Notes: generated by a model not told the origin, from the letters alone. Counted from the first letter of the stretch, positions 43,534 through 64,000 are shown. The stretch: 64,000 nucleotides of DNA from an uncultured Gemmatimonadales bacterium (GCA_963739455.1 CAVUAK010000001.1:2176001-2240000); one strand, 5' to 3'. Numbers and translations are program-made.

Positions 43534-44366
43534 CGGCTGCTGCGGTGACGCTTGGCGCGCAGATGGCCACTGCGGTGGCGGCGATCCGCCGACGCAGCGC
43601 GTTCGTGCCCGAAGTCGGGATGATCCTCGGCACCGGTCTCGGTGCGCTGGGCAAGAGCATCGCCGTCGAGGCGGAGATTCCCTATGCCGACATTCCGGGG
43701 TTTCCCCTCAGCACCGTCGAGTCGCATGCCGGCAAGCTGCTGCTTGGCACGCTCGCAGGCCGGCGCGTCGCTGCGTTGCAGGGGCGCTTCCACCGCTACG
43801 AGGGCTACTCACTGCAGCAGGTGACGTTCCCGGTGCGGGTGCTTCGCGCGCTCGGGGCATCAACGCTCGTGGTGTCCGGCGCGGTGGGTGGCATGCACCC
43901 GCTCTGGAACCTTGGTGACCTCGCGCTCCTGTCCGACCATATCAACCTGATGGGTGACAGTCCGCTCATCGGCCCGAACGACGACACGCTTGGCCCGCGG
44001 TTCCCCGACATGTCAGCGCCCTATGATGCGGCACTGCGCGCAACGGCGCACAAGGCGGCGCTCGAGCTCGGCATTGCGCTCCGTGAGGGGGTGTACGTGG
44101 CGGTGACCGGCCCTGCGCTCGAGACCCGCGCCGAGTACCGGATGCTGCGCGCGATGGGCGCCGACGTGGTGGGCATGTCCACGGTGCCGGAAGTGATCGT
44201 CGCGGTGCACGGGGGCATGCGCGTACTGGGCATCACGGTGGTGACGGACAAGTGCCTGCCCGATGCGCTCGAGCCGGCCGATGTGGCGACGATCATCGCG
44301 ACTGCGGAATCAGCGGAGCCGCGGCTGGCGGCGTTGCTGACGCGAATCCTGGAGAAGATGGCGTGA
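43530..44366 (+). CDS. punA: Purine-nucleoside phosphorylase
   Basis: [38 protein letters not shown]. Confidence 0.93.
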
Positions 44367-47300: not shown

Positions 47301-47479
47301 GGGTCACGGGTGATGAACAGGTGCAGCGCGCGGTCACGGCCCACAACGGGTTCATCCGCGACGAGACCCTGGCGCGGGAGCTCGATGTCGGGACGCGCGG
47401 TTCGGCGCCCGACCTGGAGCAGCAGGTGGATCTCGACGGGGTCTCGGCGGTACTGGGCATCCAGCGGCACGGCGAATAA
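44363..47479 (+). CDS. ileS: Isoleucine-tRNA ligase, type 2
   Basis: [52 protein letters not shown]; no C-terminal Zn finger. Confidence 0.96.
45166..45193. repeat. Heptamer (CAGTCGK) array inside ileS
   Basis: cagtcgt cagtcgg cagtcgt cagtggg, encoding SRQSAVVSG in the CP1 region. Confidence 0.75.
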
Positions 47480-47515
47480 GGCAACGGACAACCACTCATC
47501 AGGATGGGTACGAGA

Positions 47516-47902
47516 ATGATGCCGAAGAAGGACATCGACTACTTCGAGAAGCGACTGCTGGAGGAGCGCGCGCGCGTGCTCAAGCAGCTCGGCTACTACG
47601 AGAACGAGTTCAAGGCGGGCGACCAGGCGTCGGACGGGGACCTGTCGTCGTACTCGTTCCACATGGCGGACCAGGGCACCGATGCGATGGAGCGGGAGAA
47701 GCAGTTCCTCTTCGCGTCGCAGGAGGGCCGGTACCTGTGGCACGTCAACTACGCGCTCAACAAGCTCTACAACTCGCCGGAGAAGTACGGCGTGTGCGAG
47801 GCTACCGGCAAGCCGATCCCGTTCGAGCGCCTGGACGCGCTGCCGCACGCCCGCTTCTGCATCGAGGCCAAGGAAAAGGAAGAGGATGCCAAGCGCCGCT
47901 GA
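47516..47902 (+). CDS. dksA: DksA/TraR-family regulator, two-Cys variant
   Basis: Coiled-coil tip HMADQG; YGVCEATG.PIP.ERL.ALPHARFCIEA. Confidence 0.88.
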   Translation: MMPKKDIDYFEKRLLEERARVLKQLGYYENEFKAGDQASDGDLSSYSFHMADQGTDAMEREKQFLFASQEGRYLWHVNYALNKLYNSPEKYGVCEATGKPIPFERLDALPHARFCIEAKEKEEDAKRR

Positions 47903-48389
47903 ACGGCGCCTGTTCGCGTTGACCGCCGCCGTGGTGATCGTGCTCGACCTGGTCACCAAGGCGGCGGCCGAGGCGCACCTCATGCGGGTTACCGGCGTCC
48001 CGGTGGTTGGTGACTGGTTCCAGCTGCGCCTGGTGTACAACCAGGGAGCGGCCTTCGGCCTCCACCTCGGTCCCTTCTCGCGCTGGTTCTTCCTCGGGTT
48101 CGCGGTGCTGGCGGTGTTCGTGCTCAATTCGCTGTCGCGCTCGGCGCTGCCGGGCGACCGGTTCCGCCAGATCGCCTGCGGGCTGGTGACGGGCGGCGCC
48201 ATCGGCAACCTGCTCGACCGCATCCGCAGTGCCCGCGGCGTGGTGGACTTCCTCGACATCGGCGTCGGCTCCTACCGCTGGCCCACGTTCAACGTCGCCG
48301 ACATTGCCGTCACGTGCGGGGCCTTCGCACTCGCCCTTTCGTTCTGGCGGGAAGATGTCCGTCGGTCGGAGACGGCGAGCGCCGGATGA
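47886..48389 (+). CDS. lspA: Lipoprotein signal peptidase II
   Basis: DLVTK, NQGAAFG, GGAIGNLLDR, VVDF, FNVAD. Confidence 0.95.
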   Translation: MPSAAERRLFALTAAVVIVLDLVTKAAAEAHLMRVTGVPVVGDWFQLRLVYNQGAAFGLHLGPFSRWFFLGFAVLAVFVLNSLSRSALPGDRFRQIACGLVTGGAIGNLLDRIRSARGVVDFLDIGVGSYRWPTFNVADIAVTCGAFALALSFWREDVRRSETASAG

Positions 48390-49405
48390 CCACCGCCGAG
48401 GCCACGGTCGTCCGCTTCACGGTGCTGGCGGACGCGACCGAGCGCCTCGATCGTTTCCTCGCCGACCAACTCAGCCTTTCACGCACGCAGGCCGCCCGCA
48501 TCGTCGCGGCCGGCAGCGTGCGTGTTGCCGGCGTGGTGGTGCGCGCCTCGCGACTGCTCAAGCATCGTGAGGAAGTGATGGTCGAGATGCCGGTGGTGGA
48601 ACCGGCCCGCCACCTCCTGCCGGCCGACATTCCCCTCACAATTGTCTTCGAGGATGAGCACCTCCTCATCATCGACAAGCCGGCCGGCCTGGTGGTACAC
48701 CCGGCGCCGGGTCACTGGAACGACACGCTGGTCAACGCCCTGATGGCGCGCGGTACCCAGCTGAGCGAGGGCAGCGCCGGCCGGCCTGGCCTGGTGCACC
48801 GGCTCGATCGCGACACCTCGGGGCTGATGGTGGTCGCGAAGAACGACCTGTCGCACCGGAAGCTGGCCCACGCGATCGCGCAGCGAAAAGTGAAGCGGAC
48901 CTACGCGGCGCTGGCGTGGGGCCACCTCGATGCCAGCCCGACGGTCATGGAGGCGCGCATCGCGAGGCATCCGCAGGACCGGAAGCGGATGTGGATCAGC
49001 GACCTGGGCCGGCCATCGCGCACTGATGGGTATGTCATTGGTCGCTTTGCCTCCTGTGAGCTGCTCCGGCTGGAGCTCCATTCCGGCCGAACCCACCAGA
49101 TCCGGGTGCACCTGGAGAGCATCGGCCACCCGGTGGTGGGGGACCCGATCTACGCCGGCGGGGGCAGCCGGCGGATCCAGGGGTCCGCCCGGGCCCTGGC
49201 GGACCGGATCGAAAGGGCGACCCCCCGTCAGGCGCTCCACGCTGCCGGTCTCGCCTTCCGCCACCCCGCGAGCGGTGAGGAGCTCCAATTCCGGGCAGAA
49301 TGGCCGGCCGATCTAATGCCTGCACTCAAGCTCGCGGCAGGCCCGGAAGTCGTTGCCCCACAAGAGGCTCTAACCTATCTTCAGTTCTACGAGCGAGATG
49401 GCTGA
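48386..49405 (+). CDS. rluD: RluA/RluD-family pseudouridine synthase
   Basis: S4 domain RLDRFLA, KPAGLVVHP, HRLDRDTSG, GRTHQIRVH. Confidence 0.93.
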   Translation: MTTAEATVVRFTVLADATERLDRFLADQLSLSRTQAARIVAAGSVRVAGVVVRASRLLKHREEVMVEMPVVEPARHLLPADIPLTIVFEDEHLLIIDKPAGLVVHPAPGHWNDTLVNALMARGTQLSEGSAGRPGLVHRLDRDTSGLMVVAKNDLSHRKLAHAIAQRKVKRTYAALAWGHLDASPTVMEARIARHPQDRKRMWISDLGRPSRTDGYVIGRFASCELLRLELHSGRTHQIRVHLESIGHPVVGDPIYAGGGSRRIQGSARALADRIERATPRQALHAAGLAFRHPASGEELQFRAEWPADLMPALKLAAGPEVVAPQEALTYLQFYERDG

Positions 49406-49835
49406 CGTCCGTCCGTTGCACGCTGTCGTGTTCCGCGTCGGTGGCGTAGTCTGTGCGCTACCAGCAGGGGTTGTACGGGAGATCCTGCCGGCGGTCCGGG
49501 CTACCCGGGTGCCGGGGGTACCCCCGGCCATCGAAGGCCTGATCAACGTGCGGGGCGGTCTGGTGACGGTGGTGGACGGGCATGTCCTGCTGGGACAGCC
49601 GCGACCCGCGGAGCTGGAAATGGCCGTCCTGCTGCTCGACCGGGGCGGGAAGGTGGCCGGCCTGACGGTGGGTGAGGTGCTCGATTTTCTCGAAGTTCCG
49701 AGCGCTGCAGTCGCATCCCGGGAGCAGTTGCCGGGGGTCGATCCCTCCGTCGTGAAGGCGGTCGGGGAGTGGGGTGGGCGACGGTTCGTATTGCTCGATC
49801 TCGATGCGCTGCTGGCGCCGCTGCTCGGCGGCTGA
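49398..49835 (+). CDS. cheW: Chemotaxis coupling protein CheW
   Basis: VVFRVG, VREI, TRVPG.P..IEGLINVRG. Confidence 0.9.
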   Translation: MADVRPLHAVVFRVGGVVCALPAGVVREILPAVRATRVPGVPPAIEGLINVRGGLVTVVDGHVLLGQPRPAELEMAVLLLDRGGKVAGLTVGEVLDFLEVPSAAVASREQLPGVDPSVVKAVGEWGGRRFVLLDLDALLAPLLGG

Positions 49836-49880
49836 CCAGCCCAAGCGCGCAATAAATCCGGTTCCTGTCGGAGGTGGTCC

Positions 49881-50243
49881 GTGGGGCACACCGTTCTCGT
49901 CTGTGACGACGCGATCTTCATGCGCACCATGATTGCCGATATCCTCGCGGCCGCGGGCTACGAGGTGATCGGCGAGGCGGAAACCGGCGCGCAGGCAGTC
50001 CAGAAATATCGTGAACTCAAGCCCGACCTCGTCACCATGGACATCGTGATGCCCGACATGGGCGGCATCGATGCAGTGCGCGAGATCTGCAAGGATGATC
50101 CCGACGCGAAGGTGCTGATGTGCAGCGCGATGGGACAGCAGGCGCTGGTGGTCGAGGCGATCCAGGCGGGGGCGAAGGACTTCGTGGTGAAGCCGTTCCA
50201 GCCGTCACGCGTGCTCGAGGCGGTGCAGCGCGTTCTGGGCTGA
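49881..50243 (+). CDS. cheY: CheY-type response regulator
   Basis: VCDDAIFMR, DLVTMDIVMP, MCSAMGQQ, KPF; resembles Bacillus/Thermotoga CheY. Confidence 0.93.
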   Translation: MGHTVLVCDDAIFMRTMIADILAAAGYEVIGEAETGAQAVQKYRELKPDLVTMDIVMPDMGGIDAVREICKDDPDAKVLMCSAMGQQALVVEAIQAGAKDFVVKPFQPSRVLEAVQRVLG

Positions 50244-50248
50244 GCCCC

Positions 50249-52180
50249 ATGGATCTCGCGAAGTACGCGGCGCTCTTCGTCTCGGAAAGTCGCGAGCACC
50301 TGCAGCAGTGCAACCAGTTGTTGCTGGCGTGGGAGCGTGACCCGGAAGCAACTGCGCCGGTAGACGGACTGTTCCGCGCGGTGCATTCGCTCAAGGGCAT
50401 GGCGGCCACGATGGGGTTTGCGCCGCTGGCCGAGCTGGCGCACCGGGCCGAGAACCTGCTCGATGCGGTGCGGAGCGGGCGAGTCGCGGTGAAGCCGGAG
50501 CACTTCGAGCTGCTCTTCCGCTCGGTGGACGAGCTGGAGGATGGGGTCGCAAGGGCCACGACGGGGAAGGGTCTCCGCGCGGAAGCCGCATCGCTGGTGA
50601 AGGCGCTGGATGCGGCGGTGAAGATCGGGGACAAGCCGGCGGAGCCGGCAAAGGCGGGGAGGGCGGGGAAGGCGGGAGAAACGGCGAAGGCGGGTGAGGC
50701 TGCAAAGGCGGGGAGGGCGGGGAAGGCGGGTGACGAAGCGACTGCAGGCGCGAAAGATGAGCGGCCGTCGCTGGACGTGAAGATCACCGTCCGCTCCGAC
50801 GCGCTGCTCCGCGGTGCACGAGCACTGCTCGCGCTCAGGAAGGTGGAAGCACTCGGTGTCGTGTCCCGGGTGACGCCCCAGGTGAGCGAGCTGGAGCGCG
50901 AGGACTTCGACGGCAAGCTGGCGCTCCGCATCCGCACCGGTGCCGCGCCGTCCGAAGTCGATGCGGTGATCCGCTCGGCGGGTGACATCGCCGGGGTGGC
51001 GATCGACCTCGCCTCGGACGAGGCGACGGTCGATGCGAACGCGATGCGGCAGATCCGCATCGACCTGTCTCGCCTCGATGTGCTGATGAAGCTGGCGGGT
51101 GAACTGGTGGTGGCGCGAAACCGGCTGGTGGAGCTGGCCCGCGCATCGACGGACCCCGAGCTGGGGCAGGTGGGCGAGCGGATCTCGCGGCTGGTGGGCG
51201 CAGTCCAGTCGGAAGTGCTCGAGGCTCGGCTGACACCGGTGCGAGAAGTGTTCGACCGATTCCCCCGCGTGGTGCGCGACCTGGCCCGCGACCTGGGCCG
51301 GCAGGTGCGGCTCGAGGTGGAGGGCGGCGACATCGAACTGGATCGCGCGGTGCTCGATGAAGTGGCTGATCCGCTGGTGCACCTGGTCCGGAACGCGATC
51401 GACCACGGCATCGAGCCGCCGCGGGAGCGGGTGAAGGCGGGCAAGGCGGCCGAGGGACGGCTCCGGTTGTCGGCGTCGCGGGAACGGAACAGCGTGGCGA
51501 TCCGGGTGGCCGATGACGGCCGTGGCATCGACCGCTCGAAGATCCTGGCGAAGGCGAAGGCCGATGGGCTGGTGGACGCCGCTGCCGAATCGCTGGCCGA
51601 TGACCAGTTGCTGCGGATTCTCTCGCGCTCGGGCTTCAGCACGGCGGCGGTGGTGAGTGGTGTGTCGGGCCGTGGTGTCGGCGTGGACGTGGTGATGACG
51701 CGCATCCGGCAGCTCGGCGGGGCAGTGGAGCTGGTCAGCGAGCCAGGGCAGGGCACGGCGTTCGTGCTGCGGGTGCCGCTGACGCTGGCGATCGTGCGGT
51801 CGCTGCTGGTGCAGGTGGGCGAGGAACGGTATGTCGTGCCGCTCAACTACGTGAGCGAGACGATCGAGTTCTCGGCGACACCAATCACGGCGCTGGGCGA
51901 TCGCGAGGCATTGGTCATCAGGGAACAGCCGGTGCCCACGGTGCACCTGCACCGGCTGCTCAACATTGCGGGGGCGAGCACGACAGGGCGGCGGCCGGTG
52001 CTGGTGGTGCAGGTAGGGGAACGCCGGAGCGCGCTGGTGGTGGATGCACTGATTGGGCAGCAGGAAATCGTGGTGGAGCCGTTCGATGCGCCTCGCGGGA
52101 TGCCCGGCTGGTTCAGCGGGGCAACGATCCTCGCGGATGGCGCGCCGGCGCTGATCCTGGACGCGGCGGCGCTCGTCTGA
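50249..52180 (+). CDS. cheA: Chemotaxis histidine kinase CheA (P1-P5)
   Basis: FRAVHSLKGMA (Hpt), P2-like domain, HLVRNAIDHGIE, DDGRGID, GRGVGVDVV, C-terminal CheW domain. Confidence 0.96.
   Translation: MDLAKYAALFVSESREHLQQCNQLLLAWERDPEATAPVDGLFRAVHSLKGMAATMGFAPLAELAHRAENLLDAVRSGRVAVKPEHFELLFRSVDELEDGVARATTGKGLRAEAASLVKALDAAVKIGDKPAEPAKAGRAGKAGETAKAGEAAKAGRAGKAGDEATAGAKDERPSLDVKITVRSDALLRGARALLALRKVEALGVVSRVTPQVSELEREDFDGKLALRIRTGAAPSEVDAVIRSAGDIAGVAIDLASDEATVDANAMRQIRIDLSRLDVLMKLAGELVVARNRLVELARASTDPELGQVGERISRLVGAVQSEVLEARLTPVREVFDRFPRVVRDLARDLGRQVRLEVEGGDIELDRAVLDEVADPLVHLVRNAIDHGIEPPRERVKAGKAAEGRLRLSASRERNSVAIRVADDGRGIDRSKILAKAKADGLVDAAAESLADDQLLRILSRSGFSTAAVVSGVSGRGVGVDVVMTRIRQLGGAVELVSEPGQGTAFVLRVPLTLAIVRSLLVQVGEERYVVPLNYVSETIEFSATPITALGDREALVIREQPVPTVHLHRLLNIAGASTTGRRPVLVVQVGERRSALVVDALIGQQEIVVEPFDAPRGMPGWFSGATILADGAPALILDAAALV
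50632..50735. repeat. GGCGGGGAR-based repeat in the CheA P1-P2 linker
   Basis: gcaaaggcggggagggcggggaaggcggg occurs at 50648-50676 and 50702-50730; encodes AKAGRAGKAG twice. Confidence 0.85.
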
Positions 52181-52205
52181 CTGGGTAAGGGTTCGGGAGA
52201 GCACC

Positions 52206-52826
52206 ATGGACGATGTGCGGACACTGAAGGCGCACCAGCTCGACGCGCTGCGCGAGGTCGCCAATATTGGCGCCGGCCACGCGGCGACCGCGCTTTCCCA
52301 GATGACCAACCGCACCATCATGATCGCGGTGCCCGAGGTCAACGTGCGCCCGCTCGAGGACGTGGCGGAGCTCTTCGGCTCCGCTGACGCCGTCATCTCC
52401 GCGGTGCTGATGCACATGATGGGCGACCTCACGGGCCGCACCATGATCCTCTTCCCCACCGAGTCAGCCCGGAACCTCTGCGACATCCTGATGCGGCGCG
52501 CGCCCGGCACGACGCAGGAATTCGGGCCGATGGAGCAGTCGGGGCTCAAGGAGGTCGGCAACATCCTGGTGAGTGCGTACCTCACGGCGCTCAGCGACTT
52601 CATGGGGATGATGCTCGTGCCGTCGGTGCCCAGCCTCGTGATCGACCAGGCGGGGGCGATCCTCACCACCACCTACCTCAATTTCGGCCACGACCGCGAC
52701 TACGTCTTCTGCGTCGAGACGGCATTCCAGGTCGCTGGCGCGTCCGAGCAGCTTCACGGGCATTTCCTGCTGCTGCCCGACCTGCCCTCGCTGCGCGCCA
52801 TCTTCGACGCCATCCGCATCTCCTGA
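52206..52826 (+). CDS. cheC: CheC phosphatase
   Basis: DALREVANIGAGHAATALS and SGLKEVGNIL (two ExxN sites). Confidence 0.95.
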   Translation: MDDVRTLKAHQLDALREVANIGAGHAATALSQMTNRTIMIAVPEVNVRPLEDVAELFGSADAVISAVLMHMMGDLTGRTMILFPTESARNLCDILMRRAPGTTQEFGPMEQSGLKEVGNILVSAYLTALSDFMGMMLVPSVPSLVIDQAGAILTTTYLNFGHDRDYVFCVETAFQVAGASEQLHGHFLLLPDLPSLRAIFDAIRIS

Positions 52827-52830
52827 CCCG

Positions 52831-55542
52831 ATGCCGGGTCCTGCGCCTTCCGATCGCGACCTAGCCATCCTCCGGTCGTTCGCCAGTCGCATCGACCCGT
52901 CCGACGCCGGCGCGCACAACAACCTGGGTGTCCTGTATTACCAGAAGGGGATGATCGGCGAGGCCGTCGCCGCGTTTTCGCGCGCGCTCGAGATCGACTC
53001 GCGCATGCAGGTGGCGCAGGACAACCTCGAACTGGCGTATCGAGAGAGCGGTTTCTACGATGGCCGCGTCGCCGAACTGCAGGAACGCCTGCGGCGCACT
53101 CCCGATGATCGCGAGGCGCGCTGGGAACTGGGTCGTGCATACGCCAGCCTGAGCCGGCACGACCTCGCGGCCCAGGCCTTCGAGGAACTGCTTGCCCGGG
53201 CTCCAGCCGATGTGCCCGCCCTCATTCACCTGGGACTGGCCGAGAAGGCACGCGGCCGCATCGAGGCTGCCGGCGGGTGCTTCGCCCTCGCCGCCGAGCT
53301 CGATCCAGGCAGCGCCGTCGCGCGATTCTACCAGGGCGAGACGCTGTACAATCGCGGGCTCAACGATGCGGCACTCGAGGCGCTCGAGGCCGCCATCGCG
53401 CACAATCCCGACTACGCTGAAGCGCACTACCTGCTGGCCTTTGTCTACGGCGACATGGGGCTGCACGAGCGCGCGCTCGCGGCCACGAAGCGGGCGATCG
53501 CGCTGAACCCGATGCTCTCGCGGGCGCAGGCGAATCTTTCGCTCGAGCGGCTGGTGCCCAAGGGAGAAGAGGGCGCGAAGGCGGGGAAGGCGGGGAGGGC
53601 GGGGGGTGCTGGCGTGGGGTCCGACGGCGTGCCGCTGGAGCGGGATCCGCTGGCGCACTACCAGCTCGGGCTCGCCTTCCGGCAGAAGCGCTACTTCGCC
53701 GAAGCGTTGCGCGAGTACCGGATGGCACTCGATGCAGGCGAGGATCGCTCGCTGGTACTGCAGGCAATGGCGGAAGTGCACCTGCTGCGGCGCGATCACT
53801 CGACGGCGCTGGAGCTGTACGACGAGCTGCTGCGGCAGAACCCGAAGGTGCCGAAGCTCTGGAACGAGCGCGGCGTTTGCCTGCACCAGGCGGGGCGCCG
53901 CGACGAGGCGGCGACGGCCTACGAGCACGCGATTGCCGCCGACCGTACCTACGCGCTGGCGTGGAACAATCTCGGCGTGCTGCGGGCCAGTGCCGCCGGG
54001 TCCGATACGGCAATGGCGGCCTTCCGTTCGGCGCTGGAACGGCAGCCCGGCCTGCATGCGGCGCGACTCAACCTGGCCCTGCTGCTCATGCAGAAGCGCC
54101 AGCCGCAGGCGGCACTCGAGGCCTACCGCGAGGTGCTGTCGCGCGACCACGTGAATGCGGTGGCGTGGAACGGGGTCGGCCTGGTGCTGATGGAACTCAA
54201 GCGCTACACCGATGCCCGCAACGCCTTCGGCCGCGCGGTGGAGCATGACCCCGCCCTCGCTGCAGCGCACTACAACCTGAGCTTCACGCTGGGACAGCTC
54301 GGCGACTTCGAGGGCGCGTTGCGCGAAACCAAGCGCGCGCTGGAGCTCGAGTCGTACTACGTGCCGCAGAAGTTCGCGCTGACGATCGACCTGCAGTACG
54401 AGGATCCCACGATCGCAATCGCGCCCGACGTTGCGACTGAGGTGGGACTCGAGTCGCTGGGTGGCGAGTTCGCCTTCGATCCGGGCACCCTCGACGACCT
54501 CTTCGCCGAACTGGCGCCGCCCGAGGCTCCGGTGGTGGCCGCCCGGGTCGAGGATCCCCTCACGCTGGCGCGCGATTACCTGAGCAAGGGGCTGCTCGAG
54601 CTGGCGACGGCCGAGGTGACGCGGGCGCAGGGGCGTGGCGCGGGCCGCGCCGAGGCGCAGACGCTGCTGGGCGAGATCTACGCGCGGCGAGGGCTGCACG
54701 GCGAGGCACTGGAGCGCTTCCGCACGGCGCGCGAATCGAATCCGGGCGACCGGCTCGCGGCACTGGGTGAGCTGCGCGGCCTCGTGGCGCTGGAGCGTGC
54801 CGCCGAGGGTGGCACCCTGGCCGAGCAGCTGCTGGAAGCATTCCCCCGGGATGTTGAGGTGCTGAGCGCCGTCGCGCGCGTGCGCCTGGCCATGGGTGAC
54901 GCAACGCGCGCGCTGAGTGCGGTACAGCTGGCGCAGACTCTCGCGCCCGGCCGCTCCGACCTCCTGCACCTGCAGGCGCGAGTCGCAGTGCGACTGGATG
55001 ACCGTGCCGCAGCGATCGAGGCGTGCCGTCGCGCGCTCGAACTCGACGACTCGCTGGTGCAGGTGTGGTACGAGCTCGGGCGTCTGGAGGAAGGACGCGA
55101 GGGATGGACGGCAGCGCAGGATGCCTATGCGCGCGCACTCGACATCCTTCCCACATATCTCGAGGCAGGGCTGGCGCTGGCGGACCTGCTGCGGCGCCGG
55201 ATGCAGCATCGTCCCGCGCTCGAGGTGCTGGTGGAACTGCTGACCACCGACCCGTACGCGGTGGAAGCGCTGGTGCTGCTGGGCAAGGTGCTGTTCGAGC
55301 AGGGGCGCATCGACGAGGCGCTGGAGGGCTTCGGGCGCGCGCTCCGGTTCAACCCTGAGCATCCGGCGGCACTCTTCCATTCCGGGGACGTGCTGGCGCG
55401 CAAGCGCCGCTTCGAGGATGCGGTTGATGCGTGGGACCGGGTCTCACAGATCGATCCCTCGGGGCCCTTCGCCGCGCCGGCCCGGAGCCGGGCGCGCTCG
55501 GCGCGGGATCTCCGGCACATCTTCGCCGCGCAGCCGGGCTGA
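52831..55542 (+). CDS. Large TPR-repeat protein (903 aa)
   Basis: Many TPR units (AHNNLGVLY, AWNNLG, AWNGVG, AHYNL) in blocks separated by a Gly-rich and an acidic linker; no signal peptide. Confidence 0.9.
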   Translation: MPGPAPSDRDLAILRSFASRIDPSDAGAHNNLGVLYYQKGMIGEAVAAFSRALEIDSRMQVAQDNLELAYRESGFYDGRVAELQERLRRTPDDREARWELGRAYASLSRHDLAAQAFEELLARAPADVPALIHLGLAEKARGRIEAAGGCFALAAELDPGSAVARFYQGETLYNRGLNDAALEALEAAIAHNPDYAEAHYLLAFVYGDMGLHERALAATKRAIALNPMLSRAQANLSLERLVPKGEEGAKAGKAGRAGGAGVGSDGVPLERDPLAHYQLGLAFRQKRYFAEALREYRMALDAGEDRSLVLQAMAEVHLLRRDHSTALELYDELLRQNPKVPKLWNERGVCLHQAGRRDEAATAYEHAIAADRTYALAWNNLGVLRASAAGSDTAMAAFRSALERQPGLHAARLNLALLLMQKRQPQAALEAYREVLSRDHVNAVAWNGVGLVLMELKRYTDARNAFGRAVEHDPALAAAHYNLSFTLGQLGDFEGALRETKRALELESYYVPQKFALTIDLQYEDPTIAIAPDVATEVGLESLGGEFAFDPGTLDDLFAELAPPEAPVVAARVEDPLTLARDYLSKGLLELATAEVTRAQGRGAGRAEAQTLLGEIYARRGLHGEALERFRTARESNPGDRLAALGELRGLVALERAAEGGTLAEQLLEAFPRDVEVLSAVARVRLAMGDATRALSAVQLAQTLAPGRSDLLHLQARVAVRLDDRAAAIEACRRALELDDSLVQVWYELGRLEEGREGWTAAQDAYARALDILPTYLEAGLALADLLRRRMQHRPALEVLVELLTTDPYAVEALVLLGKVLFEQGRIDEALEGFGRALRFNPEHPAALFHSGDVLARKRRFEDAVDAWDRVSQIDPSGPFAAPARSRARSARDLRHIFAAQPG

Positions 55543-55544
55543 TC

Positions 55545-56690
55545 ATGGCTATCGAGGGACCGCTCAAGGAACTGCACATCCATGATGTGTTCCAGCTGCT
55601 GGACCTGGGCCGGAAGACGGGCGTGCTGTGCGTGACCTCTGAGCTGCGGCAGAACTCGGGGATGGTCTACTTCGAGAAGGGGGCAGTGGTCGCTGCGGAG
55701 ATCCGGAGTAATCCGCATCCACTGGGCACGCTCCTGCTGCGCGCCGGCAAGATCGCCGAGGCCGACCTGGCGCGGGCGCGGGCACTGCAGGGCGCGGGTG
55801 ACGGGCGACGGCTGGGCGACATCCTGGTGGACCTCGGCGCGATGAACCGGCGCGACCTCGAGCGGCTGGTGCGCCAGCAGGTGCAGGAAGTCATCTTCGA
55901 GCTGATGAACTGGTCGGAGGGATACTTCTCCTTCGAGGAAACCACCGGGCCGCGGACGAATGCCGAGGCCAGTGTGCGGATCCCGACGGAATCGCTGCTC
56001 ATGGAAGCGGCGCGCCGGATCGACGAATGGTCACGCATCGAGGCCAAGGTGCCGCACCTGGGCGTGGTGCCGCGCTTCGCCGATGCCGACAGCCAGCACG
56101 GGATGCTCGACCTCACGCCCTTCGAGTGGGAAGTGATCGCGACGGTGGACGGAGCACGCGACCTGCGGGCCATCGCCGACAAGCTGGGGCGGGCGGAGTT
56201 CGAGATCGCCCGCACCATCTTCGGCCTCACGAGCACCGGCGTCGTCGTGCTGGATGATCCGACACTGGTTGCCACCGGACCGGAAACCCCGGACGTGACG
56301 CAACTGGTGGTACGAGCAGAGGAGCAGCTGGCTTCGGGTGATGTCGACTCGGCGCGGCTCATCGCTACTGAAGCGACGGCGCGCTTCCCCGATCAGGCCG
56401 GCGCGCATGCGGTGCTCGGGCGCGTGCTGCTGGCGGGCGAGCACTACGCCGAGGCGGAGGAGGCATTTTTCGAGGCGCTGCGGCTCGAACCCTCGTTCGC
56501 ATCGGCGCGGCGGCTTCTCGGGACGGCGCAGGCTGCAAGCGGAAGGTTCGACGAGGCAATCGCCTCGTGGCAGCGCTGGCGGCAGCTGCCGGAGCGTTCG
56601 CCCGAGGAAGTGCAGCTGCAGGACGGGGTCGATCGCCTGCAGGCCGCGGCGCGACTGCTGAGTGACGCGATCAAGGGGTGGTATGACTGA
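55545..56690 (+). CDS. DUF4388 + MshEN-like + wHTH-like + TPR protein
   Basis: MAIEGPLKE..DVFQLL..GRKTGVL; LLMEAARRIDEW; C-terminal TPRs. Confidence 0.85.
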   Translation: MAIEGPLKELHIHDVFQLLDLGRKTGVLCVTSELRQNSGMVYFEKGAVVAAEIRSNPHPLGTLLLRAGKIAEADLARARALQGAGDGRRLGDILVDLGAMNRRDLERLVRQQVQEVIFELMNWSEGYFSFEETTGPRTNAEASVRIPTESLLMEAARRIDEWSRIEAKVPHLGVVPRFADADSQHGMLDLTPFEWEVIATVDGARDLRAIADKLGRAEFEIARTIFGLTSTGVVVLDDPTLVATGPETPDVTQLVVRAEEQLASGDVDSARLIATEATARFPDQAGAHAVLGRVLLAGEHYAEAEEAFFEALRLEPSFASARRLLGTAQAASGRFDEAIASWQRWRQLPERSPEEVQLQDGVDRLQAAARLLSDAIKGWYD

Positions 56691-57498
56691 CCCGATTCGC
56701 GAGCTGACAGCGCAGCTGGCGTCGGACCCGCAGAGCCTCGTCTTCCTCGAGCTGGGTGAGGCGTTGCGAAACCGGGGGCAGCCGGCGGCGGCGTACAAGG
56801 TCGCGCGCATGGGCGTGAACCGGTACCCGGAACTGGCGGCGTCGCACGACCTGCTGGCGCGGGTGCTCGCTGACCAGGGGGACCGTCACGCAGCGGCCGA
56901 GGCTTGGCGGCGCGTGCTGGAGCTGACGCCGGGGCATATCGGTGCCAACAAGGGCCTCGCCTTCCTGGCGTTCCGGGCGGGTGATCCCGAGGGCGCACTG
57001 CCGTTCCTCGAGGCGGCACTCGGTGCGGCGCCGGGAGACGAGGGTCTCGCGGTCGCCGTCGAGCGGGTGCGCACGGCACTGGATGGTGCGGCGGCGCGTG
57101 CCACAGCTGCGGCGGCAGCGAGTGAGCCGAGTGCGCTGCGCGGCGCAGAGGGGTTCGAGCCATTCGAGGATGCTCGCGGCGTCGTGCTGCTGGACACGCA
57201 GGGGCTGCGTCTCGCGGGCACGGTCAACGCGCCCGACGGAAGCGACGTCAGCGATGCGGTCGCGGCGCACCTGCAGGGCGTCTCGCGGGAGGCCGCGCGC
57301 GCGGCGCGACTGCTCGACCTGGGCGCATGGGAGAGTGTCACCGCAGAGTCGGCGGAGGGCCACCTCCTCGTCCTTCCGCCAACGCAGTCCACGGTGCTGC
57401 TCCTGCTGCGGGACGCGCGGGTGCCGGTGGGTCGTCTCGGCCTCATCGCGGAGCAGGCGGCGCGCGCGGCGCGCAGCTGGCTGGAGCGACTGGCGTGA
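56683..57498 (+). CDS. TPR + Roadblock/LC7 domain protein
   Basis: N-terminal TPRs; C-terminal GVVLLDTQGLRLAG...LLLL....PVGRL roadblock pattern. Confidence 0.8.
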   Translation: MTDPIRELTAQLASDPQSLVFLELGEALRNRGQPAAAYKVARMGVNRYPELAASHDLLARVLADQGDRHAAAEAWRRVLELTPGHIGANKGLAFLAFRAGDPEGALPFLEAALGAAPGDEGLAVAVERVRTALDGAAARATAAAAASEPSALRGAEGFEPFEDARGVVLLDTQGLRLAGTVNAPDGSDVSDAVAAHLQGVSREAARAARLLDLGAWESVTAESAEGHLLVLPPTQSTVLLLLRDARVPVGRLGLIAEQAARAARSWLERLA

Positions 57499-57845
57499 AG
57501 AACCTGGGTGAGACGCTCGAGCGGGTGACCCGCGTGGCGGGCATCCGGGGCGCGATGCTGGTGGCGGAGGCGGACGGTCTCGTGGTGGCCGAAGCATTGG
57601 CCGAGGGCCTCGACGGCGGGGCGGTCGCGGCGCTCGCGGCGAGCCTGACGCTCCGGCTCCGCCGCACGGCGATCAGTGCCGGGCTTGCGGTGCCGCAGGT
57701 GGTTCAGCTGCGGGCGGAGCGGGGAACGGTCCTCAGCGTGCCGGTGGGCGACGACCTGCTGCTCGTGGCAGTGGCGGAGCGCGATGCGAACCTGGGGCTC
57801 GCGCGGCTCGAGCTCCGGCAGGCGGCGGCGCAGCTCGGATCATGA
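57495..57845 (+). CDS. Roadblock/LC7 protein (MglB/MglC-like)
   Basis: GIRGAMLV..DGLVVA, AALAA, LVAVA..ANLGLARL. Confidence 0.88.
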   Translation: MKNLGETLERVTRVAGIRGAMLVAEADGLVVAEALAEGLDGGAVAALAASLTLRLRRTAISAGLAVPQVVQLRAERGTVLSVPVGDDLLLVAVAERDANLGLARLELRQAAAQLGS

Positions 57846-58303
57846 GGGTCATCGAGCCGTGGGTGGCCGAGCCGCTGCAGGGGTTCCTCGACGAGTCGGG
57901 TGCGCGGCTCACGCTGCTCATGACGTCAGCGGGCCAGGTGATCGCGCAGGACGGCTTCACCCGCTCGGTGGACGTCATGGCGGCGGCGGCGCTCGGGGCC
58001 GCGATCATGGCATCGACGGACGCGATCGCTGACGTGATGAGCACCGCGGCCTTCGGCGTGGTGCTGCACCAGGGGCCGAAGCAGAGCCTGGTGCTCCGCG
58101 CGTTCTGGACACCGCGCGGTCGATGGATCGGGCTGGTGGTCTTCGGGTCGGAAACGTCGGTGGGGCTGGTGCAGCTCTTCTTCCAGGAGCTGGAGCTCGC
58201 GCTGGCGAAGGCGGCGCCAGCGGAGCCGCCGACGCGGGCCGTGCTGGCGGAAAATTTCGAGCACGAACTCAACGCGAGCTTGCGCTCGCTCTTCGGGCGG
58301 TAG
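57842..58303 (+). CDS. mglB: MglB-like Roadblock protein (putative GAP of MglA)
   Basis: Roadblock fold, HQG, LVVF...SVGLV, C-terminal helix ending LRSLFG; directly upstream of mglA. Confidence 0.82.
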   Translation: MRVIEPWVAEPLQGFLDESGARLTLLMTSAGQVIAQDGFTRSVDVMAAAALGAAIMASTDAIADVMSTAAFGVVLHQGPKQSLVLRAFWTPRGRWIGLVVFGSETSVGLVQLFFQELELALAKAAPAEPPTRAVLAENFEHELNASLRSLFGR

Positions 58304-58306
58304 CGG

Positions 58307-58909
58307 ATGTCGCTGGTCAACTTCACTGCGCGCGAGATCACCTGCAAGATCGTCTACTATGGACCGGGCCGGTCCGGGAAGACGACCAACTTGCAGTACA
58401 TCTTCGGCCGGGTGCCGGACACGCGGCGCGGGCGGATGGTGTCGCTGGCCACGCAGGGTGACCGGACGCTGTTCTTCGACTTCCTTCCCATCGACCTGGG
58501 GAGCATCTCGGGGTTCCAGACCAAGTTCCAGCTGTACACCGTGCCGGGGCAGAGCTACTACAACGCGACGCGGAAGCTGGTGCTGCAGGGGGCCGACGGC
58601 ATCGTCTTCGTGGCCGACAGCCAGGCGCGGCGCTTCGACGACAACCTGGAGAGCCTGCAGAACCTGCAGGAAAACCTGCTGAGCCAGGGCGTGGATGTGC
58701 GGACGATGCCGATCGCGTTCCAGTACAACAAGCAGGACCTGCCGGGCGAGCTGGTGCTGCAGCCGTCGGAGCTGGATGACTCGCTCAATTTCCGCGGGGT
58801 GCCGAGCTTCGGTGCCGACGCGCTGCATGGCAGCGGCGTGTTCGAGACGCTGAAGGGGATCTCCGAGCTCGTGCTGCGCAAGCTGGCTGCGGGAGGGATT
58901 GCCGAATGA
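58307..58909 (+). CDS. mglA: MglA-family small GTPase
   Basis: KIVYYGPGRSGKTTNL, DRTLFFDF (intrinsic Arg), LYTVPGQ (catalytic Gln), VFVADSQ, YNKQD. Confidence 0.95.
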   Translation: MSLVNFTAREITCKIVYYGPGRSGKTTNLQYIFGRVPDTRRGRMVSLATQGDRTLFFDFLPIDLGSISGFQTKFQLYTVPGQSYYNATRKLVLQGADGIVFVADSQARRFDDNLESLQNLQENLLSQGVDVRTMPIAFQYNKQDLPGELVLQPSELDDSLNFRGVPSFGADALHGSGVFETLKGISELVLRKLAAGGIAE

Positions 58910-61147
58910 GCATGCTGCAGGGCGCGCACCGATTCGATGCACTGGTGGTGGGCACGGCCAACCGCACCGCGGTGACGGCCGGCCGCGCCGTGGCGAGTGC
59001 GCCGGGGTCGGCCTACAACCCGTTGCTCATCTACGCGCGGCCCGGCATGGGCAAGACGCACCTGCTCGGCGCCATCGCGCATGAAGTGTTCGCGGTGAAC
59101 CCGGCGGCGCGCATCGAGTTCCTGACACTGGATGAGTTCGTCGAAGGCTTCCATGTCGCCCTGTCCACCGGCCAGAGTGACCGAGTTCCGCGCGCGGTTC
59201 GGCGATGCGGACCTGCTGCTGGTGGACGACATCCAGTTCCTGAGCCGGCAACGGGAAATGCAGTCGGAACTGCTGCGGGTGCTCGACGTGATGCTGGCGG
59301 GGCAGAAGCAGGTGGTGCTCACCAGCGACCGGGCGCCCTCCGAAATCGAGTCGCTCGACGACCGGCTGCTCACGCGGTTTGCCGGGGGCCTGGTGCTCGA
59401 CATCGCCCGACCGGACTACGAGACCCGGGTCGCGATCCTGCACCGCAAGGCGGAGGAGCGCGGCGCGAGCTTCCCCGACGAGGTGCTCGAGGCGGTTGCG
59501 TCGCTCGACATCGAGAGCGTGCGTGAGCTGGTGGGCGCCGTGAACCGGCTGGTGGCATTCCAGGCGGTCAGCGAGGTGCCGATCGATGCCGCACAGGCGC
59601 GGCTGCTCATCGGCGGCCTGCAGTCGGCGGTAGCGGACGACCTGGTGGTGGAACAGGCGGAGACGCTGGAGTTCGCCGGTGTCGGCCATGGCGAGATGGC
59701 GCATGCGGGTGGCGATTCGCGCCGCCTCGTGGCCGACGCGCTTCCCGGGGTGATGCTCGGCCAGTCGGACATGCTGGGCGGCGGTCCCCTGGATGAGCTG
59801 CCCTCGCACGACGAGCCCGACGACGCGCCGCACGATTTCGGGCTGGCGGGCGAGCCGCACGAGTATGCCGACGCGCACGAGTTCTCGGAACCGGGCCCGG
59901 CGAAGCAGCAGCCGGACGAGCTGGGTGAGGGACTGGCCGAGAAGCAGGCCCTGCAGGCCGACCGCGACGAGTTCGGTGATTTCCTGTCCGACCTCGCGGC
60001 CACGCTGGCGCGGCAGGTTGATCCGTGGCGCGCGCGCGTGGGCGAGGCGATCCTGCGCTGGGAGGGCGAGGGCTTCCGCACCTACCGGCTGGAGCGGCTG
60101 CTGGAAGATCCAGAGCCACCCGATCCCGAGTCGGTGATGATCCAGTACGAAGCCGACGCGGAGCAGCTGCTCGAGCTGCGCGCCGAGGCGGAGTCGCTGG
60201 CGCCTGGCATGGCCGGCGCAGCGCAGCTCACCGATCCCGGCAACATGGCGGCGGCCGATGCCTACATGCAGCGGGTGCGCGAGGGCGCGGTGCCGCCGGC
60301 GGGGCCGGTGGAGCACTGGCTGCTCGACGACCTGATCGAGGGCCCGGGGAACCGCATGGCGGTGCGCGCGGCGCTCGCGGCGATTGCCGAGCCGGGGCAG
60401 AAGTACAACCCGATCGTGGTGGTGGGCGGTTCGGGCGTGGGCAAGACACACCTGCTGCACGGCATCGGGAACGCACTGGCGCTGGCGAGCGACGGACACG
60501 TGGCCTGCCTTGGCGCGCACGACTTCACGCAGGAGCTGATCGAGGCGATCGAGCGCGATGCCGTGGCGGCGTGGCGAAATCGCTACCGTCGCTGCTCGGC
60601 GCTGCTGCTCGACGATGTGCACCTCATCGCAGGCAAGGAGCGGACGCAGGAAGAACTGTTCCTGCTGTTCAACCTCTTCCTCGAGTCGAACCGGCAGCTC
60701 GGGTTCACCTCGGCGGTGCCGCTGGCGGAGCTGTCGGGCGTGGAGCCGCGACTGCTGACGCGCCTCGAGGGCGGGCTGGTGGTCGAGTTGCCGCCGCCCG
60801 ACCGCGAGCTCCGCCAGGAACTGGTGGAGCGGACGCTCACGAGCCGCGGCCAGGATGCGGATGCCGAGCTGGTGACGTACATCGCGTCGCGTCCCGCCGA
60901 GTCGGCGCGCGCCGTCCAGGGCTACGTGCAGCGCGTGCTGCACTCGGCCGACTCGCAGCAGGCGAAGCCGAGCGCGGCGCTGGCGCGGGAGGTGCTCGAG
61001 GGCGGCGCGCGCGTGGTGCGGAAGGGCAGCACGCCGGGCCGGTCGATCAGCGTGTCGCCCGCCTCGTCGGGTGGGGTCAAGAGCCACGAGAAGACCGTCT
61101 GGACCTGGCCCACCCTCGCCGATCGCGTGATCGAGGAGTGGAAGTAG
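58906..61147 (+). CDS. Tandem DnaA-like AAA+ protein lacking DNA-binding domain IV (+1 frameshift near 59181)
   Basis: Two copies of YNP..(G)xGKTHLL / LL.DD / RLLTR..GGL, separated by an acidic linker. Confidence 0.88.
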
Positions 61148-61148
61148 C

Positions 61149-62769
61149 ATGGCGATCAAGGGGTCCCTCAAGGAAGCGAGCCTTCCCGACGTCATCCAGC
61201 TGCTCTACCTGGGGCGGCGCACCGGGTGCCTGGCGATCACCGACCGCCAGAACCTGGGCTACATCTACTTCGATGACGGGAAGATCGCGTACGCGTCGAT
61301 CGTGAACCGCCGCGACCGGCTGGGCGACATGCTGGTGCGCAGCAACCGCATCAACGCGGAGCAGCTGCGCCAGGCGATCGACCAGCAGGCGAACGACCGC
61401 GAGGTGCGCCTGGGCGAGATCCTGCTGGGGCAGGGCGCGCTCACGCGGCAGGAACTGGACGACTACATGCGCCTCCAGATCGAGGAGGCGGTCTACTACC
61501 TGTTCACGTGGACCACGGGCGCCTTCAACTTCGAGGCGGGCGTCCGTCCCGATCCGCGCGACTTCCAGGTGCAGATCAACCCCGACTGGCTCCTGCTCGA
61601 GGGCGCGCGACGGGTGGACGAGTGGAGCCTGATCGAGAAGAAGATCCCGAGCTTCGACCTGATCTTCACTGCCGACCAGGCGCGGGTCGAGGCGGCGGGC
61701 GCCCCGCTGTCGGAGCAGGAGCAACTGGTCCTCCCGCTGCTCGATGGCCGGCGCGACGTGCAGCAGGTGGTGGACGAGTCGGGCCTGGTGGAGTTCGTGG
61801 TGGGCCAGGCGCTCTACAGCCTGATCACGGCGGGTTACGCGCATCGCACCGGGTCATCGGCGACCACCATCTCGCCCCGGGTCAACGATTCGCGGGTGGA
61901 GGAGCACCGGAACCTCGGCGTCGCGTTCTACCGCACGGGCATGCTGGACGAGGCGCTGCGCGAGTTCCGGCGGGTCGCGGAACTGCGGCCGACCGAGGGC
62001 AGCGCGCCGTTCTACCTCGGGCTCATCGCGCTGCGGCAGGCCAAGTGGGAAGAGGGCGTCGAGGCGTTCAAGCTGGCGGTGGAGAAGGGCGGCCCGCGCC
62101 CGGCGGCACTGCACAACCTCGGATTCGCACTGGAGCAGCTGGGGCGGCTCGAGGAAGCAGAGGCGGCGTATGGCGACGCCACCAGCCGCGCGCGCGATGA
62201 CCACCGGATCATGCTCGGCTGGGCCATCGCGGCGCTGCAGCGGGGCGAGCACCAGGTGGCGGTGAGCCGACTGGAACGCACGCGCGAGCTGCTGGGCGAG
62301 AAGACGCCGCCGGCGGCGTGGCACTGGGCGATGGCACTGGCCCAGGCGGCGAGCGACGGCCTCGACGCGGCGCTGGAGACGGCGCGCGCGGGCGTCACGG
62401 CATACCCGGAGCAGGCGGTGCTGCGGAACAACCTGGCCGTCCTGCTGGAGCTGCGGGGCGACACCGCCGGCGCGGAGCAGATGCTGAAGCTGGCGTTCTC
62501 GTCCGACCCGGCGCTGCCGCAGGTGTCGAAGAACACCGGCGACCTGCTGTATCGAGCCGGGCGTTATGACGAGGCCTACGAGGCGTACGAACGCGCGTCG
62601 CGCGTCGCGCCCGGAGCTGGGCGACGACCTCTACTTCAAGCTGGGCAACATCGCGTACAAGCGGCGGGACACGGCGCGGGCACGCGCGAGCTGGGAGCAT
62701 GCGACGGAACTGAACCCGGGCCACCAGCTGGCCCGGGCCAACCTCGACATGCTCGCGGCGGAGGCATGA
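61149..62769 (+). CDS. DUF4388 + MshEN-like + TPR protein (+1 frameshift near 62610)
   Basis: MAIKGSLKE..DVIQLL..GRRTGCL; LLLEGARRVDEW; TPRs continue in ORF 62566-62769. Confidence 0.85.
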
Positions 62770-63584
62770 CGGTGCACGAGGATGCGGAGTTCGATGCCCT
62801 GGCCAAGGACCTCACGGTGCGCACGGGAGTGTCGCTGGCGGCGTACAAGCCGAAGTGCCTCCGGCGCCGGATCGCCGTGCGCATGCGGGCCTGCGGCGTG
62901 CACACGTACGACGAGTACCGCGGCGTGCTCGCGAGTACGCCGGGCGAGGTCGATCGCCTGCACGACGCCCTCACGATCAACGTCACCCGCTTCTTCCGGA
63001 ACCCGGAAACCTGGGAGGCCGTAAAGGCGAACGTGCTGCCGGGGCTGATGGCGAAAGCGGCGCCGGTGCGGGTCTGGAGTGCCGGCTGCTCGTCGGGTGA
63101 GGAGGCGCATACGCTGGCGATGCTGTGGGCCGACGGCGCCGAGCGCGCGGGCCATCCCGAGTGGCTCGACCGGCTCAGCGTCGAGGCCACGGACATCGAC
63201 CGCGAGTGCATGCTGCGGGCGCGGGCGGGGCAGTATCGCACCGACGCCTTCGTGGAGACGCCGCCCCGGCTGGTGGAGCGATGGACCCGGCCGGAGGGAG
63301 AAGGGCGCATCGTCGACGCGCGGCTCCGCGCGCGGATCCAGGTGTCCACGCTCGACCTGACCCGCGATGCGATGCCGGTGCGCCGCTTCGACCTGGTCGT
63401 CTGTCGCAATGTCGTGATCTACTTCGACCGGATTACGCAGGAACGACTGTTCGTCGCCTTCCATGATGCGCTCGTGCCGGGCGGCACCCTGATCCTCGGC
63501 AAGGTGGAAACCCTGGTCGGCCCGGCGCGCGACCTGCTCGAGCTCGTGGATGTGCGCGAGCGCATTTACCGGAGGCCGGCGTGA
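62766..63584 (+). CDS. cheR: Chemotaxis methyltransferase CheR
   Basis: LTINVTRFFRN, VWSAGCSSGEE, ATDID, CRNVVIYFD; own ATG preceded by GGAGG. Confidence 0.94.
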   Translation: MTVHEDAEFDALAKDLTVRTGVSLAAYKPKCLRRRIAVRMRACGVHTYDEYRGVLASTPGEVDRLHDALTINVTRFFRNPETWEAVKANVLPGLMAKAAPVRVWSAGCSSGEEAHTLAMLWADGAERAGHPEWLDRLSVEATDIDRECMLRARAGQYRTDAFVETPPRLVERWTRPEGEGRIVDARLRARIQVSTLDLTRDAMPVRRFDLVVCRNVVIYFDRITQERLFVAFHDALVPGGTLILGKVETLVGPARDLLELVDVRERIYRRPA

Positions 63585-64000
63585 GCGCACGGGAGATCGT
63601 CGTGCGGGTATCGGACATGGCCGTGGCCTCGGCGGACGAGGTCCTCGTCACCGTGGGCCTGGGCAGCTGCGTGGCGATCATGCTCTACGATCCGGAGACG
63701 CGGATCGGCGGGCTCGCGCACATCCTGCTGCCGTCGAAGGCGCTGACCCGGCAGTCGGACAACCCGGCCAAGTTCCCGCAGTCGGCGGTGCCGGTGCTGC
63801 TGGAGCGGATGGTGGCGGCTGGGGCGAACCCGCGGCGCATCACGGCGCGCCTGGCGGGCGGGGCGAGCATGTTCTCGCAGCTGGCACCGCCGGGCACGAT
63901 CCAGATGGGCGAGCGGAACCTCGTGTCCACGCGGCAGGCGCTGAGTGCGCACAACGTGCCGCTCACGGGTGAGGCGGTGGGGGGCGACTTCGGCCGCACG
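63581..64000 (+). CDS. cheD: Chemoreceptor glutamine deamidase CheD (runs off window end)
   Basis: Manual translation: LVTVGLGSCVAI.LYD...GGLAHILLP...AGGASMF...MGERN...VGGDFGRT. Confidence 0.93.
   Translation, partial: MSAREIVVRVSDMAVASADEVLVTVGLGSCVAIMLYDPETRIGGLAHILLPSKALTRQSDNPAKFPQSAVPVLLERMVAAGANPRRITARLAGGASMFSQLAPPGTIQMGERNLVSTRQALSAHNVPLTGEAVGGDFGRT

Follow-up and report, generated by a model that had tools for sequence, protein, structure and literature searches.

A conserved gene block joining chemosensory genes, an MglA polarity module and a DnaA-derived ATPase in Gemmatimonadota, Edwardsbacteria and WOR-3

A 64,000-nucleotide (nt) stretch of DNA from an uncultured Gemmatimonadales bacterium (GCA_963739455.1 CAVUAK010000001.1:2176001-2240000; the window) carries 14 genes of an 18-gene, co-directional block in which an MglA small-GTPase module lies within a set of chemosensory (che) genes; the last four genes (cheB, two cheW genes and a TPR gene) lie beyond its 3′ edge. 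The block is real and conserved in three phyla (Gemmatimonadota, Edwardsbacteria and WOR-3), and is probably an old signalling block. The reading that we favour, and rate at a little better than even, is that its Che genes form an F1-type pathway that modulates an MglA polarity module, and that this module governs the placement or activity of type IV pili in mostly non-flagellated bacteria; F1 is the class to which we take this Che system to belong, CheC, CheD, the P2 domain and the CheY match being consistent with that name.

Genes were called by Pfam and NCBIfam profile scans together with translation of the window, and positions elsewhere in its genome (G000; 3.6 Mb, 84% complete) are given as contig coordinates (G000:C1, G000:C2). 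A reading of the window made from its sequence alone (the sequence-only reading) had described 14 co-directional genes from cheW to cheD, overlapping or 1–45 nt apart, with the polarity module inside the che genes. All were found, the count being correct once two frameshifts (see below) are set aside, and the junctions across the whole block range from −32 to +45 nt. The genes are as follows (fractions are sequences that keep the named feature).

49398..49835, + strand: cheW1 (PF01584; 8-nt overlap with the stop of rluD)
49881..50243, + strand: cheY, stand-alone (PF00072; Asp54 in 62/62)
50249..52180, + strand: cheA with Hpt, P2, dimerisation, HATPase and CheW domains, without a fused receiver (Pfam/NCBIfam scan; His46 in 60/60)
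52206..52826, + strand: cheC phosphatase with two ExxN motifs (profile scans; motifs in 61–64/64)
52831..55542, + strand: large TPR protein, 903 amino acids (aa) (profile scan; acidic linker with F-D-xxx-L-D-x-L-F)
55545..56690, + strand: PATAN-1, DUF4388 with an MshE-like insert, followed by TPRs (PF14332; NF053729 36.8 bits, cut-off 38)
56683..57498, + strand: TPR-Roadblock fusion (PF03259 and TPR families)
57495..57845, + strand: Roadblock/LC7, single domain (PF03259)
57842..58303, + strand: mglB-like Roadblock, divergent, with a C-terminal helix (Myxococcus xanthus MglB E 1e-7; NF052242 far under its cut-off)
58307..58909, + strand: mglA small GTPase (E 8e-71 to M. xanthus MglA)
58906..61147, + strand: DnaA-like ATPase, double DnaA-AAA module (PF00308; frameshift near 59183 in the assembly)
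61149..62769, + strand: PATAN-2, DUF4388 with a tandem MshE-type cyclic di-GMP (c-di-GMP) motif and TPRs (NF053729 43.2 bits, cut-off 38; frameshift near 62610)
62766..63584, + strand: cheR, a gene of its own (PF01739 and PF03705)
63581..64069 (last 69 nt beyond the window), + strand: cheD (PF03975; Cys and His in 67/68)
G000:C1:2240038-2242905 (3′ of the window), + strand: cheB, cheW2, cheW3 and a 297-aa TPR gene, the end of the block (translation, profile scan and order in relatives)

Conservation was assessed in relatives' loci fetched by MglA similarity (the best 80 of 548, a set skewed toward close relatives), in 120 genomes of the phylum, each at least 90% complete, and in 13 loci of Edwardsbacteria or WOR-3 type (10 and 3, respectively), reached via distant PATAN-2 relatives and a WOR-3 protein; kin among the compared genomes are not independent. 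The sequence-only reading had named a gene order not conserved in relatives as grounds for refutation, and the order is conserved: 79 of the 80 Gemmatimonadales loci are collinear and every gene is present in 42 of the 43 loci that span cheC to cheD, and thus the block is not a product of chance. Cluster-type CheA, called present at a best E-value of at most 4e-90 (our own cut-off), is confined to six families, where 77 of 88 genomes carry it (two of these 88 genomes, G082 and G120, are unpublished and enter only the genome tallies and locus L192); none of the 32 genomes of the other six families does. The ten loci that bear the titles Edwardsbacteria, UBP2 or uncultured bacterium share this order over the part that each covers (cheW-cheY-cheA-cheC ... 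cheR-cheD-cheB-TPR, then cheW and receptors), with a methyl-accepting chemotaxis protein (MCP) gene downstream in 9/10, the receptors there being inside the block. The three metagenome loci found with the WOR-3 protein carry a reduced form, ATPase-PATAN-cheR-cheD-cheB, which mglA-mglB precedes in two of them (L293 and L294). The interleaved order is retained at cross-phylum protein identities of approximately 30–45%, and CheY is 72–76% identical even to that of Edwardsbacteria-type genomes. Four genomes with a listed completeness of 98–100% (G071, G108, G112 and G114) have lost the entire block, true deletions in which rluD lies a few kb from rsmH. The remnant in G071 (L302, on G071:C9) consists of cheY and a TPR fragment; this genome is without PilM, and its single PilT match carries an internal stop.

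The 8-nt overlap of cheW1 with rluD at the 5′ border is present in 46 of 61 loci, and the block is followed by a peptidase-like gene and then the rsmH-ftsL-ftsI cluster. A terminator scan of window positions 44100–64000 returned no sites against 4.6 ± 1.6 in shuffled sequences, and a promoter scan returned one promoter-like site where 0.9 were expected, both scans being weak at this GC content. In one RNA run (X20), relatives' contigs cross the rluD-cheW, cheY-cheA and cheA-cheC junctions with none listed across cheC-TPR; these contigs do not establish a single transcript, are possibly DNA, and no conclusion was drawn from them. Two single-base frameshifts affect the block in this assembly: one near 59183 splits the DnaA-like gene, and one near 62610 creates an 811-aa DUF4388-TPR-CheR reading frame. 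In relatives, the DnaA halves lie within one reading frame in 89 of 91 loci, and PATAN-2 and its tail in 78 of 80; additionally, contigs of related organisms from independent runs have one base fewer at 59183 (2/4 runs) and at 62609/62610 (3/4 runs). A split DnaA gene and a PATAN-TPR-CheR fusion (0/72 relatives' loci fused) were both rejected as frameshift artefacts, and the two one-base insertions are probably assembly errors. Other genes of this genome are also split over two frames (e.g. C1:499564-500187, 551887-553839 and 904353-904824), and single-base errors are probably common in the assembly.

The CheA His, CheY Asp, CheC motifs, CheD Cys/His, CheB triad and MglA R53/T54/Q82 are kept in 95–100% of 60–99 sequences, and the Che proteins and MglA look active. 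The block of G000 holds no receptor gene, and four MCPs are encoded elsewhere in the genome. MCP-1 (G000:C1:1050710-1052401, unlinked to the block) occurs in 69/77 genomes with cluster CheA vs 1/11 without it, and MCP-2 (G000:C2:215911-217992; L083), a multi-membrane GAF receptor, in 51/77 vs 1/11; the single cheA-lacking exception with receptors is G108, where the deletion leaves a cheW remnant. Loss of che genes occurred at three or more separate places of a RluD tree of 35 loci (six of the 41 chosen loci, including L099 and L185, were left out, genus g51 being unplaced). This co-loss with the Che core suggests that MCP-1 and MCP-2 feed the CheA of the block. The two have C-arms of approximately 22 heptads (44H length), contain HAMP or GAF domains and start with hydrophobic segments at the N-terminus; three of the four MCPs of G000 fit 44H, as judged by C-arm length only. 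MCP-1 overlaps an upstream gene that resembles a periplasmic binding lipoprotein (G000:C1:1050710-1053537), a possible ligand sensor of the pathway. MCP-2 sits within a trpA-folK-panB housekeeping run and was not found in genera without cheD, cheW2 and cheW3, e.g. g31 and g20. At L282:15462-19274, a 1271-aa reading frame with two MCP signalling domains, either a fusion or an assembly error, stands where L290 has two MCP genes.

The two halves of the block proved separable. The Mgl block is whole after loss of all che genes in L095, L183 and L103, while L099 and L185 retain the Che core and PATAN-2 without the Mgl block, and therefore the Che part is a detachable input rather than an obligatory part of one machine. 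The single Che and Mgl pathway of the sequence-only reading thus keeps the backing of conserved order, tight junctions and intact catalytic residues, but not as an inseparable unit. In L099 and L185, PATAN-2 still lies between cheC and cheR, and it is the only non-Che gene retained in every variant with both CheY and CheA that was examined, which makes it a candidate CheY target on comparative grounds. A TPR linker stretch that resembles the C-terminal helix of M. xanthus MglB (ISDDDIDNLF) was also considered as a CheY site and set aside as a lead only, being kept in che-less lineages, lost in g50 and unrecognisable in Edwardsbacteria.

PATAN-2 scores above the NF053729 cut-off (43.2 vs 38 bits), with two RLGxxL motif matches in 68 of 76 sequences, and is a probable c-di-GMP binder; G000 itself has 14 GGDEF matches. 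PATAN-1 falls just below the same cut-off (36.8 bits), its first RLG motif being kept in 5/78 sequences and the first Arg mostly missing, and with these scores the MshEN-like proteins announced by the sequence-only reading were recognised. A family of 900–1100-aa proteins (P0065, P0073, P0078, P0094 and others) has the first 240 residues of PATAN-2 in common.

The double DnaA-type ATPase of that reading was likewise recovered. In a structural model (pLDDT 81.8), two modules of DnaA domain-III type are joined by an acidic linker, which is disordered, and a helical domain in the middle; the C-terminus consists of a disordered tail and one helix, with a conserved W-x-W-P tail. Foldseek matched the DnaA-like module to 8bv3 (38% identity, rmsd 1.6). 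Both modules keep Walker A/B (Walker A Lys in 75/75), the arginine finger (72/75 and 75/75) and sensor II (75/75 and 73/75), and module 2 is without sensor I; residue counts leave out L064, L097 and L102, in which the DnaA-like module 2 was not located. No DnaA domain I or IV was detected, PF00308 being the sole Pfam match and the TIGR00362 match ending at profile position 333/437, and a separate, normal dnaA lies elsewhere in G000. Hda consists of a single module with an N-terminal clamp-binding motif; the ATPase reaches 165 bits with TIGR03420, below the cut-off of 194.8, and has no conserved stretch before module 1, no dedicated search for a clamp motif having been made. It shares the fold and ATPase motifs of DnaA domain III and Hda, but is duplicated, lacks domains I and IV, has a C-terminal tail of its own and sits in a signalling block. 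In Edwardsbacteria the ATPase is a single module with a Walker A–B span of 48 vs approximately 60 residues (10/10 loci); the shortened insert is the one that bears the single-stranded DNA (ssDNA) contacts of DnaA, while the C-terminal W-P...R...E tail is retained.

The ATPase and PATAN-2 vary together. PATAN-2 measures 430–477 aa in all six loci without the ATPase (three genera, of which g59 and g20 are separate on the RluD tree) vs 537–573 aa in 27/27 with it; its C-terminal TPRs are gone in 6/6 vs 0/27, and five of the six also lack the MshE-like insert. Co-folding of the ATPase with PATAN-2 residues 300–539 scored 0.53, the best of three controls reaching 0.06, with contact agreement of at least 47% and partner pLDDT of at least 83. 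The co-folding mark used was attained by 116/157 solved and 2/215 mismatched pairs, with 18 of the 157 solved pairs and both mismatches at 0.60 or below. Alongside the co-loss pattern, the predicted complex lends weak support to docking of the ATPase on the last TPRs of PATAN-2.

The MglA of the block has the features of group 1 (P-loop, Arg53, Thr54, Gln82 and NKxD, G4 reading NKQD), with R53 and T54 in 97/99 sequences and Q82 in 99/99. A second mglB-mglA pair in G000 (C1:2010075-2011254, L279; mglA at C1:2010580), after dnaX-recR-like genes, is closer to Myxococcus for both MglA (E 1e-83 vs 8e-71 for the block) and MglB (E 3e-31 vs 1e-7), and the MglA of the block is thus a specialised paralogue. 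In the MglA of the second pair, an insertion of approximately 30 residues precedes the last strand. Genus g31 has five genomes (one event) in which MglA is stripped of its P-loop and switch residues, the large TPR protein is cut and PATAN-1 is 23–25% identical, while mglB, the ATPase and PATAN-2 remain conserved. The g31 MglA (L097, L098, L189, L190 and L191) is a pseudo-GTPase with an open frame and may have a scaffold role. From its TPR content and its co-decay with MglA, the large TPR protein is a candidate SgmX-like MglA effector.

Co-occurrence with motility genes, suggested by the sequence-only reading as a check, answered in part. FlhA was found in 20/77 genomes with cluster CheA, in none of five Edwardsbacteria-type genomes and in 1/12 genomes of the window's genus (G000 itself being 84% complete); several flagellated genomes carry another cheA on the flhA contig, and family f10 has FlhA in 9/9 genomes with the block absent. 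Flagellar chemotaxis was thus rejected as the output for most carriers, in favour of a non-flagellar output. PilM was detected in 114/121 and PilT-family proteins in 118/121 genomes, and PilM in 5/5 Edwardsbacteria-type genomes; a pilus output is therefore allowed but not proven. PilT-family copies number 1–3 in the seven genomes without cluster MglA and 3–5 in 72/76 with it, which is suggestive and was not used as support because of kinship. As for Agl-Glt gliding, the search in G000 covered the GltG model alone among the gliding genes and gave three weak matches, none near the cut-off.

Several observations weigh against the favoured reading. The actual switch for the pili could be the second, more canonical mglBA pair, and four loci retain MglA without a Roadblock match (L085, L086, L188 and L102). 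At the thresholds used, an MCP-1 match is missing in 8/77 genomes with cluster CheA and both receptors in 5/77, no CheY partner was identified within the block, and the Che and Mgl halves each persist without the other. Furthermore, pilus genes are near-universal in the phylum even without the block, so that pili are not singled out, and G071 is the only genome seen to have lost the block, the receptors and PilM together. No pilus gene lies in the block at the loci examined, the nearest being a pilM cluster approximately 17 kb upstream in one of five Edwardsbacteria-type genomes; in particular, none of the 13 loci of Edwardsbacteria or WOR-3 type shows a pilT gene within it.

Starting from the observed genes, order, residues and co-losses, we propose a set of interactions, a CheY target, a single transcript and an output. 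Membrane receptors, encoded elsewhere in Gemmatimonadales and in the block in Edwardsbacteria, would signal through CheW and CheA to CheY, and this relay would be damped by CheC/CheD together with CheR/CheB. By homology, the switch would be the dedicated MglA paralogue under three Roadblock proteins. PATAN-2 would dock the DnaA-derived ATPase on its last TPRs to form a hub, phosphorylated CheY and c-di-GMP would act on this hub and on the Roadblock proteins, and the ATPase may serve as an ATP-driven scaffold or remodeller of the PATAN-2 complex, outside replication. MglA-GTP would recruit the large TPR protein and PATAN-1, as SgmX depends on MglA in Myxococcus, where it binds MglA via its TPRs (PMC11580455). 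Finally, the PilB/PilC motor may be the target of the PATAN domains, on the model of cyanobacteria: in Synechocystis, PATAN binds PilB1 and PilC (bioRxiv 10.1101/2021.06.11.447907). As a more speculative extension, which we hold only tentatively, the DnaA AAA+ core would have been co-opted before the split of Gemmatimonadota, Edwardsbacteria and WOR-3 to drive, with ATP, a polar hub that is gated by c-di-GMP (PATAN-2) and relays the signal of CheY to the dedicated MglA. Besides Frz, this would be a second and independent way, perhaps an older one, to couple chemosensing to a Ras-like polarity switch.

Three other explanations were weighed. The pathway might be of Dif type, with the Che relay and c-di-GMP-binding PATAN proteins controlling adhesion or exopolysaccharide and MglA marking the attachment pole. 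The sequence-only reading had likewise spoken of a Dif-like core, and as far as gene content goes this stands: CheA, W, Y, C, D and R with 44H receptors fit the description of a Dif-like cluster (PMC2577667), the co-lost receptors have the C-arm length required, and the GGDEF proteins of G000 are in keeping with it. The likeness extends to Geobacter Dif-like and F1 systems. It does not extend to an in-cluster 44H receptor with a tiny periplasmic domain, as the Gemmatimonadales block has no receptor, holds three CheW and encloses the Mgl, PATAN and ATPase genes; among solved structures the 1tmy group matches CheY best, no polysaccharide gene was seen in the block, and the accessible text of PMC2577667 mentions no mglA, mglB or TPR gene with Dif clusters. 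We regard this explanation as unlikely. Slightly less likely still is that the block governs polarity for cell division or asymmetric growth, the ATPase coupling to the chromosome cycle via ssDNA or DnaA binding. The position of the block between divIVA-ileS-lspA-rluD and the rsmH-ftsL-ftsI cluster would suit this, as would module 2, in which residues that touch the DnaA-trio strand in Bacillus subtilis DnaA (PMC10721633) are retained, namely I190 (66/75), I193 (62), R202 (75), K222 (59) and E228 (75). However, a DnaA-box-binding domain is missing, His occupies the I190 position of module 1 in 70/75 and module 2 is without N187 and sensor I. The Edwardsbacteria form, moreover, is cut in the DNA-contact insert and yet keeps its C-terminal tail, a normal dnaA is present, and four near-complete genomes have deleted the whole block.

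The least probable explanation in our estimate is that two independent systems share an operon for co-expression, with the CheY target elsewhere in the genome. The reciprocal losses described above and the want of a CheY partner within the block speak for it, but different phyla share the interleaved order even at low protein identity, PATAN-2 stays between cheC and cheR in the two loci that have lost the other Mgl-block genes, and L293 and L294 of WOR-3 type hold mglA-mglB-ATPase-PATAN-cheR-cheD-cheB together.

The favoured reading, chemosensory modulation of a pilus-positioning MglA module, resembles Frz in its logic. The hallmark of Frz is a CheA-CheY hybrid kinase with a cytoplasmic receptor; here CheA lacks a fused receiver, a single CheY occurs together with CheC and CheD, and the receptors are membrane proteins. 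All parts but the receptors are in one block, with a DnaA-derived ATPase and two PATAN-MshE-TPR proteins in addition. With Frz-MglA/MglB/RomR-SgmX the block shares the chemosensory input, a probable type IV pilus output and an MglA that comes with Roadblock regulators and a large TPR protein (PMC3441718, PMC4546325, PMC11580455). Cyanobacterial PatA-type (PATAN-REC) systems also have PATAN (DUF4388) beside che genes, their PATAN binding PilB1 and PilC (bioRxiv 10.1101/2021.06.11.447907), whereas the PATAN proteins of the block are fused to TPRs rather than a receiver, CheY is separate and MglA is present. In Myxococcus, mglA is not near its partner genes (PMC4316618). MglA-PATAN neighbourhoods of group 1 MglA are known from the same work; in its Table S2, the entry for GAU_1409 of Gemmatimonas aurantiaca T-27 reads 'PATAN>MglA>-PATAN>', an arrangement like that of the loci without a Roadblock match described above; this cultured strain therefore holds at least the PATAN-MglA-PATAN core. 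That row is without che genes, and the supplement as searched gives no DnaA-like, CheC or CheD neighbour and no function (PMC4316618). The sequence-only reading knew of no characterised system with this composition, and a literature search, in which subscription journals were poorly covered, agrees in finding no description beyond that row. The block apparently represents a form of chemosensory control over an MglA switch that has not been described before, its one new component apparently being the DnaA-derived ATPase.

As a closed parts list with one CheY, the block addresses the route from a chemosensory phosphorelay to MglA, which is marked as unknown in Myxococcus (PMC3441718, PMC4546325). 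If true, it would also show the ATPase core of DnaA in use outside replication and would offer a first entry point to the surface behaviour of a phylum common in soil.

Among further observations, the four loci with MglA and no Roadblock match are also without a cheR match and all lie in flagellated genomes (G091, G126, G115 and G117). Upstream of the block, the run yggS-divIVA-pnp-ileS-dksA/traR-lspA-rluD (window 42323-49405) leads straight into cheW1. A second chemosensory cluster of G000, by pqq-like genes (G000:C1:613261-619806), reads cheA-cheW-MCP-long repeat-like protein-cheR..., the labels beyond cheA and MCP being read from sequence starts only, and its MCP has a longer C-arm.

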